40,543 bases of DNA from a virus (lineage: Duplodnaviria > Caudoviricetes), in the IMG/VR virus record IMGVR_UViG_3300012347_000612, positions 1 through 40,543 of that record; one strand, 5' to 3'. Positions within the stretch are counted from its first letter, which is position 1. Each line of letters starts with the position of its first letter. Positions 2,825 to 35,039 of this stretch are shown here, piece by piece. The notes under the pieces are model-generated. The model worked only from the letters and a program-made list of their open reading frames with translations. It did not search any database and was not told the DNA's origin. The position numbers were made by a program, and so were the translations under genes.

Positions 2825-3181
2825 ATGACCATGAACCAAGCACCCACAGCCGGAGCCATCAAGCGGGCGAAAAAACAAAGGCGTTTGGATCACGCATGGA
2901 GTCTCACAGGTGGCAGGTGCGTCTATTGCAACTCCGAAACGCCCACCATCCTGCGCACAGTCGATCACTGCCTTCCCCGCTCTCACGGAGGATGGTCCAC
3001 AAGCTCCAATCTTCTCCCGGCCTGTTACCATTGCAACAATGCTCGTGGCACCACGTCCCCCGCTTCGCGTCTTGCGCATCCGCGGTGGACGACACTGGTG
3101 AAGCAGATGGAAGAGAACGCCGATGCGCTGGCACCGCCGCCCCAGCGGCTGGCCAGCAAGAAGGACGTTCCCGGCGGTTGA
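2825..3181 (+). CDS. HNH endonuclease
   Basis: CVYC...TVDHCLPRSHGG...NLLPACYHCNNARG; stop codon lies inside the attC-like site at 3112-3201. Confidence 0.88.
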   Translation: MTMNQAPTAGAIKRAKKQRRLDHAWSLTGGRCVYCNSETPTILRTVDHCLPRSHGGWSTSSNLLPACYHCNNARGTTSPASRLAHPRWTTLVKQMEENADALAPPPQRLASKKDVPGG

Positions 3182-3201
3182 CCAGCCGCGCCTTGTTCGA
3201 T
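3112..3201 (-). other. attC-like recombination site (head-operon cassette)
   Basis: Imperfect inverted repeat AACgccgatgcgctggcaccgccg...cggcggttgaccagccgcgccttGTT with extra unpaired bases on one arm; GTTcgattt (3195) is the reverse complement of aaatcgAAC (3544-3552). Confidence 0.75.
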
Positions 3202-3551
3202 TTCCCGAATTACCAACCGACTCCGATACCATGAATGACACCAACGCATCCGCCCTTGTGGGCAAGGCCATGAAGCAAAACGCGCAACTTCGCAACAAGC
3301 TGGAAAGCGTGCGCGGTAAGCTGCAAACCCACATCTCCGACATCAAGCGCGAGGTCGATCAAATCGACGCAGCCCTGAAGGTGGAATACACCGACTGGAT
3401 CGCCCTACTGAAATGGCAGGATCTGAAATGGGTGTGCATCGCCTGCGTGAACGTCCGCGACATCGACGACGATACGCCGGATGACTTCGACCTGGCGCTG
3501 CCGATCCCGTCGCCGGAGAGCCTTCCGGAGTGGAACGGTTGGTAAATCGAA
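3118..3551 (-). mobile_element. Gene cassette E (434 bp) at the second attI-like site
   Basis: Bounded by crossover triplets at 3116-3118 and 3550-3552; complementary R boxes; carries one ORF. Confidence 0.7.
3231..3545 (+). CDS. Hypothetical protein (cassette E cargo, coiled-coil N-terminus)
   Basis: ORF MNDTNASALVG...; the frame is also open from ATG 3123 inside the attC, so the start is uncertain. Confidence 0.7.
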   Translation: MNDTNASALVGKAMKQNAQLRNKLESVRGKLQTHISDIKREVDQIDAALKVEYTDWIALLKWQDLKWVCIACVNVRDIDDDTPDDFDLALPIPSPESLPEWNGW

Positions 3552-3584
3552 CAGCTTATTATCCCGACCAGACTGCGAATAAAT
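3546..3584 (-). other. Second (orphan) attI-like site
   Basis: 3550-3582 matches 34006-34038, which abuts the IntI start, at 29 of 33 nt. Confidence 0.7.
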
Positions 3585-3700: not shown

Positions 3701-3815
<115 letters not shown>

Positions 3816-9057: not shown

Positions 9058-9172
<115 letters not shown>

Positions 9173-11163: not shown

Positions 11164-11233
<70 letters not shown>

Positions 11234-13825: not shown

Positions 13826-13946
13826 GAACATCGAACGTCGAACGTCGAACGTCGAACATCGAACATCGAACATCGAAGTAAGAACCTCTTCCTCTTCATT
13901 CTCTTCACTTCGACGTTCGATGTTCGATGTTCGATGTTCGACGTTC
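13826..13946. repeat. TCGAAC heptamer inverted-repeat element (full copy)
   Basis: Array, spacer, inverted array. Confidence 0.9.
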
Positions 13947-15775: not shown

Positions 15776-15896
15776 GAACATCGAACGTCGAACATCGAAC
15801 ATCGAACATCGAAGGAATATGCTTCGCGCTTCTTCATTCTCTTCCTCTTCCTCTTCACTTCGACGTTCGATGTTCGATGTTCGATGTTCGACGTTC
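15776..15896. repeat. TCGAAC heptamer inverted-repeat element (full copy)
   Basis: Array, spacer, inverted array. Confidence 0.9.
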
Positions 15897-24434: not shown

Positions 24435-24638
24435 ATGCCCCCACGCCGTCCACCGCCGGATCCAGCCCAAGTCCGCCAGGCCCAGCGCATCCTCCGCCTC
24501 CCTCAGACCGGCATCCTCTGCCGCGCCACCATCATCGCCGCCGCCAAGCTCACCAAGTCATGGCACCGCGGCCCCAGCCTTGTCGGACAAGTCCTCGAAC
24601 ATCGAACATCGAACGCCCAACATCGAACATCGAAGTAA
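24435..24638 (+). CDS. Small hypothetical protein ending in a repeat element
   Basis: 67 aa; C-terminus derived from the heptamer array. Confidence 0.4.
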   Translation: MPPRRPPPDPAQVRQAQRILRLPQTGILCRATIIAAAKLTKSWHRGPSLVGQVLEHRTSNAQHRTSK

Positions 24639-24718
24639 TATGCCTTCGCGCTTCTTCATTTTCTTCCTCTTCCTCTTCACTTCGACGTTCGATGTTCGAT
24701 GTTCGATGTTCGACGTTC
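24595..24718. repeat. TCGAAC heptamer inverted-repeat element at the lysis/integrase convergence
   Basis: Full copy; contains the stop codons of both converging ORFs. Confidence 0.9.
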
Positions 24719-30787: not shown

Positions 30788-31542
30788 GCGACGAGATGCA
30801 CATGGAGAGTGCCTGGCGGCACCGGGATATGACGGCCATCGAGCAGTGGCACGGGCCGCAGCCGGATGAGGCGCTGATGGAGGCGGAGGATCTATCCGGC
30901 GGCGTGGGTTTCCCGGCGCGGGTGGAGATGATGGACCGGCTGAATGTATATCTGTTCGCGGACGGGCGGCTGGGGGAGTGGGAGTTTGTGGCGGCGCGTG
31001 GGTATGACCTGATGGTGAATTTCGCGCCGAGCCTGCTGGTAGGGCGTGGACGACAGGAGATGGCGCGGCTGCTATGGGTGCGGCGGGAGCAACGGGGAGA
31101 GGCACTGGGGGAGTTCATGGAGTTCCTGCGGGGTATCCCGGGCGGGGCGGTAATTCTGGCGCGGCTGCTGGGTTTCATTTTCCCGGGGACGGGGAGCCGG
31201 TGGCTTTTCCGCGGGACGCAGCGGGCGTATATCATGGCGAGGGCGTGGCAGCCGTGGCTGGTGACGCAGGAGGGCCGGGAGCTTTCCTACGAGGATCTGG
31301 CAGAAGTTTTCGAGGGGCAGGAGCTAACGACGCCGAAGGCGCGGAACCGGGCGCGGAGCCGCTGGAGTGCGAGAGTGCAGGAGGTGCTGCGCAAGCCGAT
31401 AGAAGCAGCCGGCGGGACGGTGCGATTGCAGTTCTCGAAGAGCGCCGGGGCCAGGGAGCAGATGGCGGCAAGCGCGAGGGGGAACCAGAATAGGAAGACG
31501 AACGCCGGTGTCCTGGCACATGCCGACGAGAAAACTAACTGA
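30784..31542 (+). CDS. Hypothetical protein, possible HTH transcription regulator
   Basis: ELSYEDLAEVF segment; stop codon lies inside attC1. Confidence 0.55.
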   Translation: MSDEMHMESAWRHRDMTAIEQWHGPQPDEALMEAEDLSGGVGFPARVEMMDRLNVYLFADGRLGEWEFVAARGYDLMVNFAPSLLVGRGRQEMARLLWVRREQRGEALGEFMEFLRGIPGGAVILARLLGFIFPGTGSRWLFRGTQRAYIMARAWQPWLVTQEGRELSYEDLAEVFEGQELTTPKARNRARSRWSARVQEVLRKPIEAAGGTVRLQFSKSAGAREQMAASARGNQNRKTNAGVLAHADEKTN

Positions 31543-31618
31543 CCATGGGAAACGACTTCATACTCCAAAACGCCGACGAAGGGAGTGAAGGCATGTTGCC
31601 AACGACCTCTTGTTCTCT
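31497..31618 (-). other. attC-like site 1 (122 bp)
   Basis: AACgccggtgtcctggcacatgcc...ggcatgttgccaacgacctcttGTT imperfect inverted repeat. Confidence 0.78.
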
Positions 31619-32289
31619 GCCGTCATCTTCCGGCATCTCTTCCAAATTATCAACGCATCACGATACAACGATATGAAAACAAGAATTGAACTCATAGCCG
31701 CCGAGAATCATCTCGGAGAAGCCATGCAGGATGTGTGGAATGACCGCTGCCAAGACATCGGCGAAACGCCGACATGCTTTGAAGTCCGTGGACCGAAAAC
31801 GACCCGCATCATCGCTGACTTCGAGGGATCGGCCTTTGTGCGTGATATAATCGAGACACTGGAGGCTCGCGGATGCTCTCTCCATGTTCCGCCACCGAAG
31901 GGGAAAGTGGGCGAGCTTTTTGACGATATTGCCAAGGGGTTAGGGTTGCCAGAAACTCCCGAAGAAAAAATCGCCGCTCTTGAAGAGCAAATCAGGCACA
32001 TGATCCAGCACCGGGAGAGGCTCAAGAATGACATCGGCCGACTGGAATCCAGACTCCAGAAAATCAGTGACACGATGGAGAATATCGTCGTCACAGAAGG
32101 CGAGGACGCGGGAGTGGTGCTGCTATCTACCGAAGCGCCATGTCGCTATGAAGCCGGGAGCAACGTAGCGATCTACGGCCTGCCATACTTCTCGCCGCTC
32201 GGTGAATCACTCATGGAGGTATACCATCTCGCAAGCCAAAGAGAAGCTGCCGGAACCGCTGACGAGAAGCCGGACGGTCAGGCAGAGAA
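31503..32289 (-). mobile_element. Gene cassette D (787 bp)
   Basis: GTTctctgcc (31612) is the reverse complement of ggcagagAAC (32281-32290). Confidence 0.75.
31545..31676 (+). CDS. 43-aa leader ORF starting inside attC1
   Basis: ATG 2 nt after the upstream stop; its TGA overlaps the next ATG (ATGA). Not in the ORF track because of its size. Confidence 0.4.
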   Translation: MGNDFILQNADEGSEGMLPTTSCSLPSSSGISSKLSTHHDTTI

Positions 32290-32323
32290 CGCCGAGCCCA
32301 TCCACGGCGAGAAAAATGCCTGA
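31673..32323 (+). CDS. Hypothetical protein (cassette D cargo, central coiled coil)
   Basis: 216 aa; lacks the regional G-skew; stop codon inside attC2. Confidence 0.75.
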   Translation: MKTRIELIAAENHLGEAMQDVWNDRCQDIGETPTCFEVRGPKTTRIIADFEGSAFVRDIIETLEARGCSLHVPPPKGKVGELFDDIAKGLGLPETPEEKIAALEEQIRHMIQHRERLKNDIGRLESRLQKISDTMENIVVTEGEDAGVVLLSTEAPCRYEAGSNVAIYGLPYFSPLGESLMEVYHLASQREAAGTADEKPDGQAENAEPIHGEKNA

Positions 32324-32369
32324 ATACACAATCGAGCTTATCGCCGTTGGATGCGGCGATTTGTTCATC
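32284..32369 (-). other. attC-like site 2 (86 bp)
   Basis: AACgccgagcccatccacggcga...tcgccgttggatgcggcgatttGTT with two extra bases on one arm. Confidence 0.82.
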
Positions 32370-32653
32370 CTCTTTGAATTACCCCAAGATCCCAAAATGA
32401 AATACATCGTAACCAAGCGCGAAGACGGCACCGAAGAAATCTTCATCTTCCCTGACGCTGTGCATCACAAGGACATGGCCGAAGCTGTCCAATACCTCAA
32501 AGAACATGACCGACTGGTCTATGGGAAGTGGCGGTGGATCGAACGCGAACCGATCTCGGCTGGATTCGTGAAAGGTGGGAAGTGCGTGGGTAACAGCGAG
32601 TCTCTTGGACTCCGGTCACGCCCGCAAGACTCCGATCTGCTTCCTTGGATGAA
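32290..32653 (-). mobile_element. Gene cassette C (364 bp)
   Basis: GTTcatcc (32363) is the reverse complement of ggatgAAC (32647-32654). Confidence 0.78.
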
Positions 32654-32714
32654 CGCTAGGGCTATGCCGTCCGGTGACGGTGTGGCCGATGAATCGAAAC
32701 TGAAAAGCTTATGA
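32316..32714 (+). CDS. Hypothetical phage-type protein (cassette C cargo)
   Basis: Start at 32316 (inside attC2) or 32397 (MKYIV...IFP..VHH...SAGF...C.G.SESL); stop codon inside attC3. Confidence 0.75.
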   Translation: MPEYTIELIAVGCGDLFILFELPQDPKMKYIVTKREDGTEEIFIFPDAVHHKDMAEAVQYLKEHDRLVYGKWRWIEREPISAGFVKGGKCVGNSESLGLRSRPQDSDLLPWMNARAMPSGDGVADESKLKSL

Positions 32715-32742
32715 CGGATCGGACATCAGCCCCTTGTTCTCT
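32648..32742 (-). other. attC-like site 3 (95 bp)
   Basis: AACgctagggctatgccgtccg...cggatcggacatcagccccttGTT. Confidence 0.8.
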
Positions 32743-32746
32743 GCCG

Positions 32747-32926
32747 TCATCCTCCGGCATCTCTTTTCTTCGTCTTGCGACGTATGGCCGCGAGGAAAAG
32801 CGCCTGCTGCCATTCGGGGGGCGTGCGGCTACCATCAAGCCAGGCGTAAGCGGTGGCACGAGGACACCCAAGGGCGGCAACGATCTGGGCGGCGGAATAC
32901 TCAGCAAGCGATTCGGTGAAGGACAT
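32747..32926 (-). CDS. Small Cro/XRE-like HTH protein (59 aa)
   Basis: SAAQIVAALGCPRATAYAWLDGSRTPPEWQQ; stop codon directly before the attC3 R'' box. Confidence 0.7.
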   Translation of the reverse strand: MSFTESLAEYSAAQIVAALGCPRATAYAWLDGSRTPPEWQQALFLAAIRRKTKKRDAGG

Positions 32927-32950
32927 GGCTGGACAATACCCGAAAAAGAA

Positions 32951-33010
32951 ATGTCTGCAATGCATAAAATAAATCTCGACAAGTGTCCGCAATGCAGACA
33001 CTCTTTGCGC
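32951..33010. promoter_or_regulatory. Operators and leaderless promoter inside cassette B
   Basis: tgtctgcaatgcata (32952) and near-palindrome tgtccgcaatgcagaca (32984-33000); TCGACA-17 nt-CACTCT-6 nt-ATG. Confidence 0.6.
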
Positions 33011-33271
33011 ATGTCCAACACCAACGACCGCCTCAACAAACTCTTCACCGAACTCGAAGAAGCCACCAAGGCTTCCAATCACTACGAGTTCCAATCCCTC
33101 TACGGCACCGCCGTGAGCCGCGAGGCTTACGACGCAATCTATGAGGAAGCGCTTAAGGAAATCACCATCATCCAAAAGCGCATCATCCGCACCCTCCTAA
33201 AAGCTGGCGAGCTGGCCGAACTCATCGGCCATCTCGACGCGGGGACAATCAACCGCGCTCTCCTCAAATAA
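33011..33271 (+). CDS. Hypothetical helical protein (cassette B cargo)
   Basis: MSNTNDRLNKLF...; the frame is also open from ATG 32711. Confidence 0.7.
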   Translation: MSNTNDRLNKLFTELEEATKASNHYEFQSLYGTAVSREAYDAIYEEALKEITIIQKRIIRTLLKAGELAELIGHLDAGTINRALLK

Positions 33272-33311
33272 TCACAAGCGGGGTTCGATCCCCCGCCAAT
33301 CTGGCAAGCCA

Positions 33312-33620
33312 ATGAATCCTGAAATCGAAAAGATACTAAAACGCGCTCTGGTTGGGCTGAAGATGGGTGCCGATCTGGCATACGCGACTGAGACGACAGA
33401 CTCGCAAGCCGCGATGGCTGGTGCTGTCTGCGTGAAAATCGAATCCATAGAGGAAGAGGTGAAGGCGTTTCTTGGGCGCACACTGGAGACTCAGTATGTT
33501 CCCGGAAATCCCGGATGCACGATCTTCTTTAAAAGCCAAAGAGAAGCTGCCGGAACCGCTGACGAGAAGCGCGACCGCAGTGCAGAGAACGCCGCGCCTT
33601 CCCGCCCGGAACCATCTTGA
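33312..33620 (+). CDS. Hypothetical protein (cassette B cargo)
   Basis: 102 aa; stop codon inside attC4. Confidence 0.65.
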   Translation: MNPEIEKILKRALVGLKMGADLAYATETTDSQAAMAGAVCVKIESIEEEVKAFLGRTLETQYVPGNPGCTIFFKSQREAAGTADEKRDRSAENAAPSRPEPS

Positions 33621-33745
33621 GTGACTCAAACGCTGAACTACTATGACGAATCGAAAAACATATATGATTGAGATCGAAGCTGACGGCTCGATCACGGAGG
33701 AGTCGCGCAAGATGGTGCAGGGTCCGGAACGGCATCTTGTTGGGG
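33584..33745 (-). other. attC-like site 4 (162 bp, long loop)
   Basis: AACgccgcgccttcccgccc...gggtccggaacggcatcttGTT; longer than typical attC sites. Confidence 0.68.
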
Positions 33746-34007
33746 ACGTCGCGGAGCGAGTCACCGACAAGAGTGCCGTGGAGGTCGCGAAGCCGGGAAG
33801 GCGCGGCGTTGGAGAGATCGTGGGAGCGGAAGAACTACGTGGATACATTGCCCAGCAGGACAGCGAAGCGCGGTCGAGACGGAAAGAAGCCGAAGCGCAA
33901 GGTCTGCCGAAATGGGTGATAACGCATATCAACGGAGAGCTGACCGCGCTGCGAGAATTAGGTGAATGGCTGACCGAACGGACCGGCCAGCGGAGCGATC
34001 TCTCCAA
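33590..34007 (-). mobile_element. Gene cassette A (418 bp), attI-proximal
   Basis: GTTgggga (33739) versus tctccAAC (34001-34008): 7 of 8 complementary. Confidence 0.7.
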
Positions 34008-34038
34008 CAGCTTATTAACCCAACAGGACTGCGAATAA
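33643..34038 (+). CDS. Hypothetical protein (cassette A cargo)
   Basis: Starts inside attC4 and stops inside the attI-like site. Confidence 0.7.
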   Translation: MTNRKTYMIEIEADGSITEESRKMVQGPERHLVGDVAERVTDKSAVEVAKPGRRGVGEIVGAEELRGYIAQQDSEARSRRKEAEAQGLPKWVITHINGELTALRELGEWLTERTGQRSDLSNSLLTQQDCE

Positions 34039-34040: not shown

Positions 34041-35039
34041 ATGAAAACACTGACTGATCGTGAGGCGATTGTGGGATTGAAGAATGCACAGCTGGAAAAG
34101 GGGCATTGCTTGAATACCCGGAAATCCTACCGGGGATGGGTGATGCGCTATCGGGAGGCGCGGACGAAGCGATTGGTGCGGGATCTGCAAGGATTCCTGA
34201 CCAGGCTGGCAACGGTGGAACGGGTGAACCCGAAGACGGTAAGGCAGGCGCTGAATGCTTTGAAATTCTATCATGAGAAGGTGCTCGGCATCGAGATCGC
34301 GCCGAAGTCTTTGACGGTGCCATCCATCAATCCACACCGGAACATTCCGGTGTGGCTGACGCATGACGAGGCGATGGACCTCATCGGGCGGATGGAGGGG
34401 GTGGCTCGGCTCCAGGCGGAGATGCTGTATGGGACGGGCGGGCGGATCACGGCGCTGCTGACGCTGCGGCTGAAGGATCTGGATTTGCAGAAGGGGCTGG
34501 TGACATTCCGCTTCGATAAGGGCGGTAAGTCCCGGACGGTGCGGCTGCCGCGGGCGGTGATGCACCGGCTCCAGACGCATGTGGCAACGGTGCGGATGCT
34601 ATGGGAGGGGGACAAGGCGCGGGGAATCATCTATCCGACGGCGGCGGAGGCGGCGATGAAGAAGCTGGGCCGGGCCCGCTTCGGGACTCTGCCGTTCTGC
34701 TGGCTCTTCCCGTCCCGGGATGTGCGGGGGGCGGAGCGGTGGCATGCGACGGATCACGCTCTATCGGACGGGCTGCGCGTGGCGGCGGAGGAGGCGGGGA
34801 TCATGAAACGGGTCTCGCCGCATGTGCTGCGGCACTCGAACGCGACGGCTCTGCTGGAACGCGGGGAGAATATCCGGACGATCCAGGAGCATCTGGGCCA
34901 CTCGAATGTGGAGACGACGGAAATCTACACGCATGCGAATGGCTCTCAGGGGGTGATCTCGCCGCTGGACTATCCGCCGCTGGCGGTGCCGCGGGGAGTT
35001 TCTAACCTGGTGGCATTCGAGGGGAGGGCGAGCGCATGA
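34041..35039 (+). CDS. intI: Integron integrase-like tyrosine recombinase
   Basis: FLTRLATVERVNPKTVRQALNAL, IPVWLT..E, LYGTGGR, KGGKSR, IntI-type insertion (WEGDKARG...CWLFPS), HVLRHS, IRTIQEHLGH..VETTEIYTH. Confidence 0.9.
   Translation: MKTLTDREAIVGLKNAQLEKGHCLNTRKSYRGWVMRYREARTKRLVRDLQGFLTRLATVERVNPKTVRQALNALKFYHEKVLGIEIAPKSLTVPSINPHRNIPVWLTHDEAMDLIGRMEGVARLQAEMLYGTGGRITALLTLRLKDLDLQKGLVTFRFDKGGKSRTVRLPRAVMHRLQTHVATVRMLWEGDKARGIIYPTAAEAAMKKLGRARFGTLPFCWLFPSRDVRGAERWHATDHALSDGLRVAAEEAGIMKRVSPHVLRHSNATALLERGENIRTIQEHLGHSNVETTEIYTHANGSQGVISPLDYPPLAVPRGVSNLVAFEGRASA

Follow-up and report, generated by a model that had tools for sequence, protein, structure and literature searches.

Integrons and CALINs have been reported from phage genomes, with sites that recombine with IntI1 (Qi et al. 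2023, PMC9892861); the complete integrons described in the available portions of that paper are fragments, either of host integrons or of class 1 integrons. The cassettes of bacterial integrons carry complementary core and inverse core sites, RYYYAAC and GTTRRRY (PMC3053210). How a cassette is formed has been named as an open or outstanding question (PMC8618304; PMC8352920). The group IIC-attC intron model (Leon and Roy 2009, in PMC3053210) concerns the joining of a gene to an attC site at precise boundaries, the idea of attG sites is related (10.1101/2022.09.11.507474), and the available part of 10.1101/2022.02.06.479319 holds nothing further on long matched ends or cassette formation. In temperate phages, relaxed recombination at short homologies is established (PMC3945230). 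In a literature search, no paper was found to describe long matched ends recurring as a pair around unrelated cargo, and the supplements of PMC9892861 could list such arrays. An integron cassette variant with a reusable long end pair is described here, phage integrons themselves being already known.

The window (i.e., the whole stretch of DNA that was analysed, a virus record of 40,543 bases) contained terminase, portal, ParB-like and exonuclease genes. Its integrase was best matched by family TIGR02249 (E 6e-67; 226 bits, below the cut-off of 265) and, among PDB structures, by IntI4 (2a3v, E 3e-41), with the IntI-specific insertion region aligned and the catalytic R, H-x-x-R, H and Y all present; this combination of family match and structural match, insertion included, is that of an IntI-family tyrosine recombinase, as integrons possess. 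An attI-like site containing AAC lay about 30 nt before the integrase ATG and was conserved in the window and in four of five integrase relatives. Upstream of the integrase, four AAC...GTT hairpins (31501-31614, 32288-32365, 32652-32738 and 33588-33810) bounded four cassettes, here D, C, B and A, and attC arrays occupied the same position in three of the five viral-contig relatives, L108 having only 159 bases upstream. With a purpose-built detector the four sites scored 16.1-18.5, while nothing in three resampled windows exceeded 13.2, and their individual folding z-scores were modest (0.06 to -3.2). The hairpins were imperfect and stood between cassettes, as attC sites should, and they belonged to the same family as those in related bacterial arrays. 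To judge from these genes and sites, the window is a phage with its own integron, comprising integrase, attI-like site and four attC-bounded cassettes. Like the phage integrons of PMC9892861, this one combined an IntI-type integrase, an attI-like site and attC-bounded small ORFs, and DNA methyltransferase cargo is known from both kinds of array; unlike the complete integrons available from that source, its integrase-plus-array layout recurred in related phages. The features of the array were as follows, where L and R denote the left and right ends of a shell.

31501-31614, minus strand: attC-like hairpin of cassette D, which travels with the left end and holds the leader-ORF ATG
31545-31676, plus strand: leader ORF, 43 aa, starting inside attC and reading through L, its stop overlapping the cargo ATG
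31612-31642, plus strand: shell left end L of cassette D, shared with B
31673-32323, plus strand: cargo ORF of D, 216 aa, of no family; a mosaic, its C-terminus running through R and its stop in the next attC
32233-32290, plus strand: R, the right end of the D shell; its last three bases are the AAC crossover triplet
32288-32365, minus strand: attC-like hairpin of cassette C (z -2.1/-3.2), of the same family as sites in Akkermansiaceae-family genomes
32316-32714, plus strand: ORF of cassette C
32363-32654, no strand: ordinary cassette C, with 8-bp complementary ends and without L or R
32652-32738, minus strand: attC-like hairpin of cassette B, holding ATG 32711; same type in L114
32711-33271, plus strand: ORF of B (186 aa) that starts at the ATG in attC and runs through L; a second ATG lies at 33011
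32736-32771, plus strand: L, the left end of the B shell, in its 36-nt form
32747-32965, minus strand: small HTH-like ORF in B, likely start 32926, stop inside L
33312-33620, plus strand: final ORF of the B cargo (102 aa), continuing in frame into R and terminating in the attC that follows
33533-33590, plus strand: shell right end R of cassette B
33588-33810, minus strand: long attC-like hairpin of cassette A, 223 nt, holding the start of ORF 33643-34038
33808-34008, no strand: ordinary cassette A body, with 13-bp complementary ends and without L or R
34003-34038, no strand: attI-like site, just 5' of the integrase start
34041-35039, plus strand: integron-type integrase, 332 aa, with TIGR02249 and IntI4 structure matches

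The original observation was that D and B share the same end sequences around unrelated interiors, and this was borne out. The left ends (31609-31641 and 32733-32765) were identical at 32 of 33 nt and the right ends (32233-32270 and 33533-33570) at 38 of 38 nt, with similarity on the right extending to 66 nt at 88%, through AAC and into the next attC. The exact cassette ends were placed at GTT (31612/32736) and AAC (32288/33588), which corrects the bounds first proposed. L measured 30-36 nt, usually 36 nt, and R 58 nt; both were protein-coding and in frame with the cargo, and the unit consisted of attC, L, cargo and R. Between the two interiors, the best blastn match had E 0.66 and the best tblastn match, in six frames, E 0.089. 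The HTH-like ORF of B, which matched HTH_23 in a profile search (E 6e-4, below cut-off), was part of a widely shared repressor/promoter module, and the attC type of D also preceded L in L001, L009, L119 and L122.

Exact and degenerate scans located the ends at nine viral loci and 11 metagenome loci, one of which repeats a viral contig; one Akkermansiaceae MAG contig with R (G001) and two more divergent copies of L were further loci. Over these loci, 13 of 15 complete L cassettes ended in R and at least eight unrelated first genes were enclosed. The 15 are distinct cassettes with the far end in view (for L003, by visual judgement); the decayed copy L166 and four L copies truncated at contig ends were excluded. 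The 13 include L009, which ended in a variant R, and L162. Types of first gene comprised that of D, the HTH module, a PAPS-reductase-like gene (Pfam), a SAM methyltransferase (weak Pfam match) and one first gene each from L114 and L118; from their motifs, two more are presumably methyltransferase-like, one resembling MT-A70 and one of the cytosine type. As a separate observation, cargo often included DNA-modification genes.

Protein searches, which detect fused forms only and lack DNA context, widened this range. Among homologues of the D leader peptide, all 24 longer matches had the L peptide fused to other cargo, and the L peptide headed 15 families (43 L-fused sequences). A profile search with the R peptide returned 108 cluster representatives; together with another protein search and four earlier matches these made up a set of 126, of which 125 carried R. 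The 120 comparable cargo parts formed 57 single-linkage families, 39 R-tailed proteins being linked in a chain through short shared segments, and six of the 125 also showed L. Contigs from public sequencing runs piled up on L and R, not on the interior, and in four of four runs (three studies) they joined exactly 31642 to 32233 across other DNA. R occurred without L in L015, and L without R in L002 and L003. A 16-nt L seed matched 82 loci, nine of them true L with no variants, and of six matches in a genome scan five were judged to be chance. No L was found in G001, isolated phages in INPHARED gave no match to R or to the head of B, and Rfam gave a single chance-level match (E 0.9).

Since the interiors were not homologous and the same end pair enclosed many other cargoes, the proposed reusable shell with exchanged genes stands; L and R are strongly linked, and the feature is real and widespread. 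The empty shell that had been suggested as a thing to look for did not appear: there was none among the 15 complete L cassettes, the shortest being 460 nt, and neither an empty shell nor a short joint was found in contigs from seven sequencing runs, such contigs dropping rare forms. According to the available part of PMC8876359, class 1 integrons likewise have a cassette end, the qacE101 5' segment, fused before several different genes, and fused cassettes, in which multi-gene cassettes arise by loss of internal parts, also resemble the shells. However, qacE101 is one end and a promoter, whereas here both ends were kept as a matched pair, in frame, around dozens of cargoes.

The orientation of the cassettes was evident from L005 and L007, where the same cassette and upstream attC had different downstream neighbours. 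The attC thus travels with the left end, and therefore the cassettes lie on the minus strand with their genes reversed. In the phage set the longest frame was on the reversed strand in 27 of 40 cases and on the opposite strand in eight, with five ties, while in host arrays 14 of 15 complete cassettes had the canonical gene direction. Canonical direction from a Pc promoter at attI, as is usual for integrons, was not a feature of the phage set, and no sigma-70-type promoter was found. Instead, a stop was present in the frame reading AAC as Asn in 68 of 72 attC sites and an ATG open to GTT in 41 of 72; the right ends were longest open in the same frame (57/64, phage set), with a weaker frame bias on the left side (33/69). 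Complementary ends of 7-10 bp (mode 8) were found in 40 of 52 inter-attC stretches, the 12 with fewer than 7 bp being left out as missed sites or chimeras. Such ends at AAC/GTT are shared with bacterial integron cassettes (PMC3053210). Reordering as units, as in integrons, was seen in L005 and L007. Ordinary cassettes had these ends and a pyrimidine-rich edge, in host arrays too, and 12 of 30 had TCTT at positions 9-12 (background 0.005 per position), as did L at its inner edge. The array appears to follow a phage-adapted grammar, in which genes are reversed and start and stop are supplied by attC. Genes against the attC direction, attC-borne start and stop codons, and a long end pair around unrelated cargo were not found in the available portions of PMC9892861.

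The attC sites offer a hint of the hosts. Among 301 genomes from the family to which the MAG belongs, R plus attC had matches in 30 and R itself in G001 alone, and with the same detector attC was found in 21 of 29 other Akkermansiaceae-family loci. This shared attC family therefore suggests Verrucomicrobia as the hosts of these phages.

The reading frame bears on whether L and R might be peptide tags, that is, an N-terminal linker and an acidic C-terminal tail selected at the protein level. All 17 DNA matches of R, not all of them independent, continued the reading frame of the ORF upstream, as such selection would predict. However, this fusion gives no evidence for a tag, because in-frame read-through is the rule across the lineage; moreover, nearly all differences seen in R change an amino acid (by eye), and the cargoes have no common function. 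Selection as tags is very improbable.

It had also been claimed that L and R are complementary beyond the R box. Past the first 10 bp, the inner duplex had an energy of -16.6 kcal/mol, against -8.0 +/- 1.9 for shuffled sequences (2 of 2000 as good); values ranged from -11.6 to -16.6 in 10 shells and from -4.4 to -13.0 in 30 ordinary cassettes, only one of which overlapped the shell range. In the divergent shell L162, representing one lineage, each of the four changes in L had its counterpart in the R of the same shell, two inside the R box and two past it. Across 13 shells, the extension comprised 216 unchanged, two compensatory, 11 wobble and 18 mismatched cells, and the outermost helix was mismatched in up to four. 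R columns were variable about equally often when paired (11/19) and unpaired (20/30), the L162 duplex (-11.5) was hardly better than that of its L with the window R (-11.1), and two of the R changes in L162 also occurred in the partial R of L015. The extended pairing was upheld for the window, with matched changes in one divergent shell, but it was broken in several others. Compared with bacterial cassettes (PMC3053210), the portion that is shared and complementary is longer in L and R, at 30-36 and 58 nt, and both ends recur on different cargo families.

In modelled excised circles L and R flank the attC core, where the extension added about 15-20 kcal/mol to the hairpin. This accords with L and R being halves of the recombination site itself, split or nested, in which case no cargo exchange would be implied. 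Yet they were lacking in cassettes A and C and in 30 ordinary cassettes, instead of standing at every cassette boundary; L followed at least four different attC types; and in comparison with 112 attC sites, 73 and 42 of 100 shuffles were as good as L and R, so that either end as a degenerate attC arm was rejected. The R box also paired at P 0.97-1.0 with 9-nt flanks alone, and a requirement of the extension for R-box folding was thereby rejected in the model. The split-site reading is largely refuted, and we give it scarcely any credence. A MITE or IS with terminal inverted repeats was also rejected, no target duplication being seen in the loci inspected, where L followed an attC-like arm and R was followed by an attC- or attI-like site. 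PeSL shuffling in T4-type phages (PMC2839356) and Rad52-like relaxed recombination (PMC3945230) resemble the present case in that short repeats bracket exchanged small genes. However, PeSLs, in the available description, are direct-repeat promoter/terminator units without a site-specific recombinase, whereas L and R differ from each other, are mutually complementary and lie inside the attC crossover points. A PeSL-like repeat was rejected because the two ends are not copies of each other and contained no promoter-like sites; five terminator-like matches were found where 3.1 were expected, one overlapping L in B.

A further use of the pairing would be targeted capture, with L paired to R in single-stranded DNA and the cargo, as a loop, swapped in one step by the integrase or by template switching at the stem top. 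Both conserved spans do stop near the top of the predicted stem, L junctions fell within about 6 nt, and the matched changes of L162, with the same R changes in L015, agree with a paired intermediate. Nevertheless, R junctions were spread over about 18 nt, no AAC or GTT was found at the inner junctions of shells, and mismatched and wobble cells outnumbered compensatory ones as given above; the mismatched outermost helix, the near equality of native and swapped L162 duplexes, and the lack of an empty shell in complete cassettes or contig joints likewise count against it. Targeted capture is unlikely in our estimation. The same doubt attaches to a cassette factory, in which the L:R stem would present enclosed DNA as a loop and genes would be captured from first to last codon. 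The chassis would supply the start and stop codons, the linker and tail, and the recombination sites, and new cassettes would then pass into host integrons, as the R copy in the Akkermansiaceae MAG array may illustrate; if true, integron cassettes would arise by a direct route that can be assayed.

Comparison of shell interiors showed how they change. Shells held one to four ORFs and shared modules, and the junctions of cargo with L and R lay exactly at, or close to, the natural start and end points of genes, in a single reading frame. L122 consisted of a methyltransferase, an extra ORF and R, and L116 was without the extra ORF; L114 and L118 had the last ORF alone in common. Accretion appears visible in these cases, in line with interior turnover. 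Similarly, the C-terminal part of the D ORF was common to P0001 and P0026, which have other N-termini. Identical two-base R alleles recurred in unrelated cargo families, which points to exchange inside R; adenine mutagenesis of the diversity-generating retroelement type was dropped as a source of R changes, since by eye C and G were changed too. The number of residues upstream of R that matched the PAPS-type tail fell from 6 to 0 in 8, 13, 14, 13, 27, 11 and 37 proteins, with two full matches, a gradient that could instead reflect mutational decay. One PAPS-reductase type occurred both in the most divergent shell (L162) and in the main family (L004, P0020, P0032), and free-standing PAPS homologues end 6-12 residues past the last Cys motif, where R begins. 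A PAPS founder is only suggested, however, because the tails of four free-standing homologues showed no likeness to R.

The explanation we consider somewhat probable is that the ends of one founder cassette have been kept while phage recombination repeatedly replaced the inside. The integrase would excise and insert the whole attC-L-cargo-R unit at AAC/GTT, small phage genes or modules would enter between L and R by short-homology or illegitimate recombination, and older contents would be deleted. Survivors would be those that kept the 8-10-bp terminal complement and an ORF in frame with the ATG of their own attC and the stop of the next; L and R, it is proposed, hitch-hike because only products with matching ends and the correct frame survive. 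In the excised circle the longer L:R pairing would lengthen the attC stem, as an inherited feature that is helpful and loosely kept, and the founder may have carried a PAPS-reductase-like gene. We infer each step of this replacement from sequence comparison. The L junction, at about 6 nt, is tighter than random breakpoints suggest, which counts against turnover. Among the 29 + 20 window ORFs scanned, no Rad52/RecT-type recombinase was recognised.

Replacement might alternatively have affected the ends, if cargoes were already short-ended cassettes to which L and R spread singly by gene conversion, the matching pair being selected later. In L160 the same methyltransferase family was flanked by short ends of another kind, with joints no more than 1-2 codons away from the shell junctions, an arrangement that fits turnover of the inside as well. 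Cassettes with a single end exist (L002, L003 and L015), HTH homologues carried either the L tail (15 of 38; eight by pattern, seven by eye) or other tails (23 of 38), and the TCTT of ordinary cassettes recalls the inner edge of L. Against this, single-end intermediates were few (2/15) with mismatched R boxes, and within the arrays compared an ordinary-ended homologue was found for one shell cargo, plus L160. A crossover at the short shared motif would shift the frame in L160, and exact TCTT/CTTC microhomology was for that reason also rejected as a junction rule. Spread of single ends seems rather improbable. The HTH gene as founder of L was unsupported, given the 23 homologues with other tails.

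To come into being, a cassette requires a gene, an attC and a pair of ends that match. The reused ends likely record new cassettes made by replacing the inside of old ones, and the record points to reuse of existing ends, unlike the group IIC-attC intron model (PMC3053210); the window ORFs that were scanned included no recognisable intron or reverse transcriptase. The shells offer a natural series: at least eight unrelated genes share one end pair, 57 families share a single end, intermediates hold one to four genes, and one cargo has both a long-ended and a short-ended form. A defined substrate of 30 + 58 nt makes cassette creation by interior replacement directly testable, in a phage-adapted integron grammar that shares its attC sites with the likely Verrucomicrobia hosts.

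DNA-modification types were frequent among the genes fused to L, the left end of the shell; across the proteins P0003-P0020 and the related loci L001-L122 they included several methyltransferases and three PAPS-reductase-like subtypes. A module comprising a small HTH gene and a divergent promoter-like stretch occupied 32770-33030 of the window, was also found at loci L002, L003, L113 and L115, and was widely shared. Because both of the L cassettes lacking the right end, R (L002 and L003), contained this module, it is suggested to be a recombination hotspot. At L015, which has R without L, the full R was preceded, at a distance of approximately 300 nt, by a truncated R. The leader found after L in cassette D came immediately after this truncated copy; an attC was not detected in its vicinity, and the surrounding region is possibly a decayed array.

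Cassette C (32363-32654) and one cassette of L001 had 12 nt of left end and 10 nt of right end in common around apparently different contents, and these ends could represent a short shell. At L114, two shells were arranged in tandem, with R, attC and L adjacent; the first L carried one change, which added a pair with R.

The attC of cassette A (33588-33810) was unusually long at 223 nt, and codons 1-56 of the gene of cassette A lay within it; its relatives from other sequencing runs had shorter loops. A second mini-array, devoid of an integrase, was situated beside the terminase at 2825-3582, where the single cassette had complementary ends of 9 bp. Its elements, and the tandem 7-nt repeats of the window, were as follows:

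2825-3181, HNH ORF, reading into the attC
3116-3197, attC, overlapping the end of the HNH ORF and followed by one cassette
3547-3582, extra copy of the attI-like site (36 nt, 86%)
3701-3814, 9058-9165, 13826-13946, 15776-15896 and 24612-24718, tandem 7-nt repeats
at 11199, 17696, 28351, 28581, 30008, 30674 and 36318, tandem 7-nt repeats

These repeats were REP-like; in the structural region they formed inverted pairs, and thereby long hairpins, while elsewhere they occurred as single arrays, some within ORFs.

A C/T-rich edge (76-79% C/T) was present just inside both R boxes of host cassettes (loci L131-L159) and the phage set alike, independently of gene direction. In four arrays (L124, L006, L118 and L122), reversed phage-type and canonical host-type cassettes occurred together, which suggests that there is traffic between phage and host integrons.
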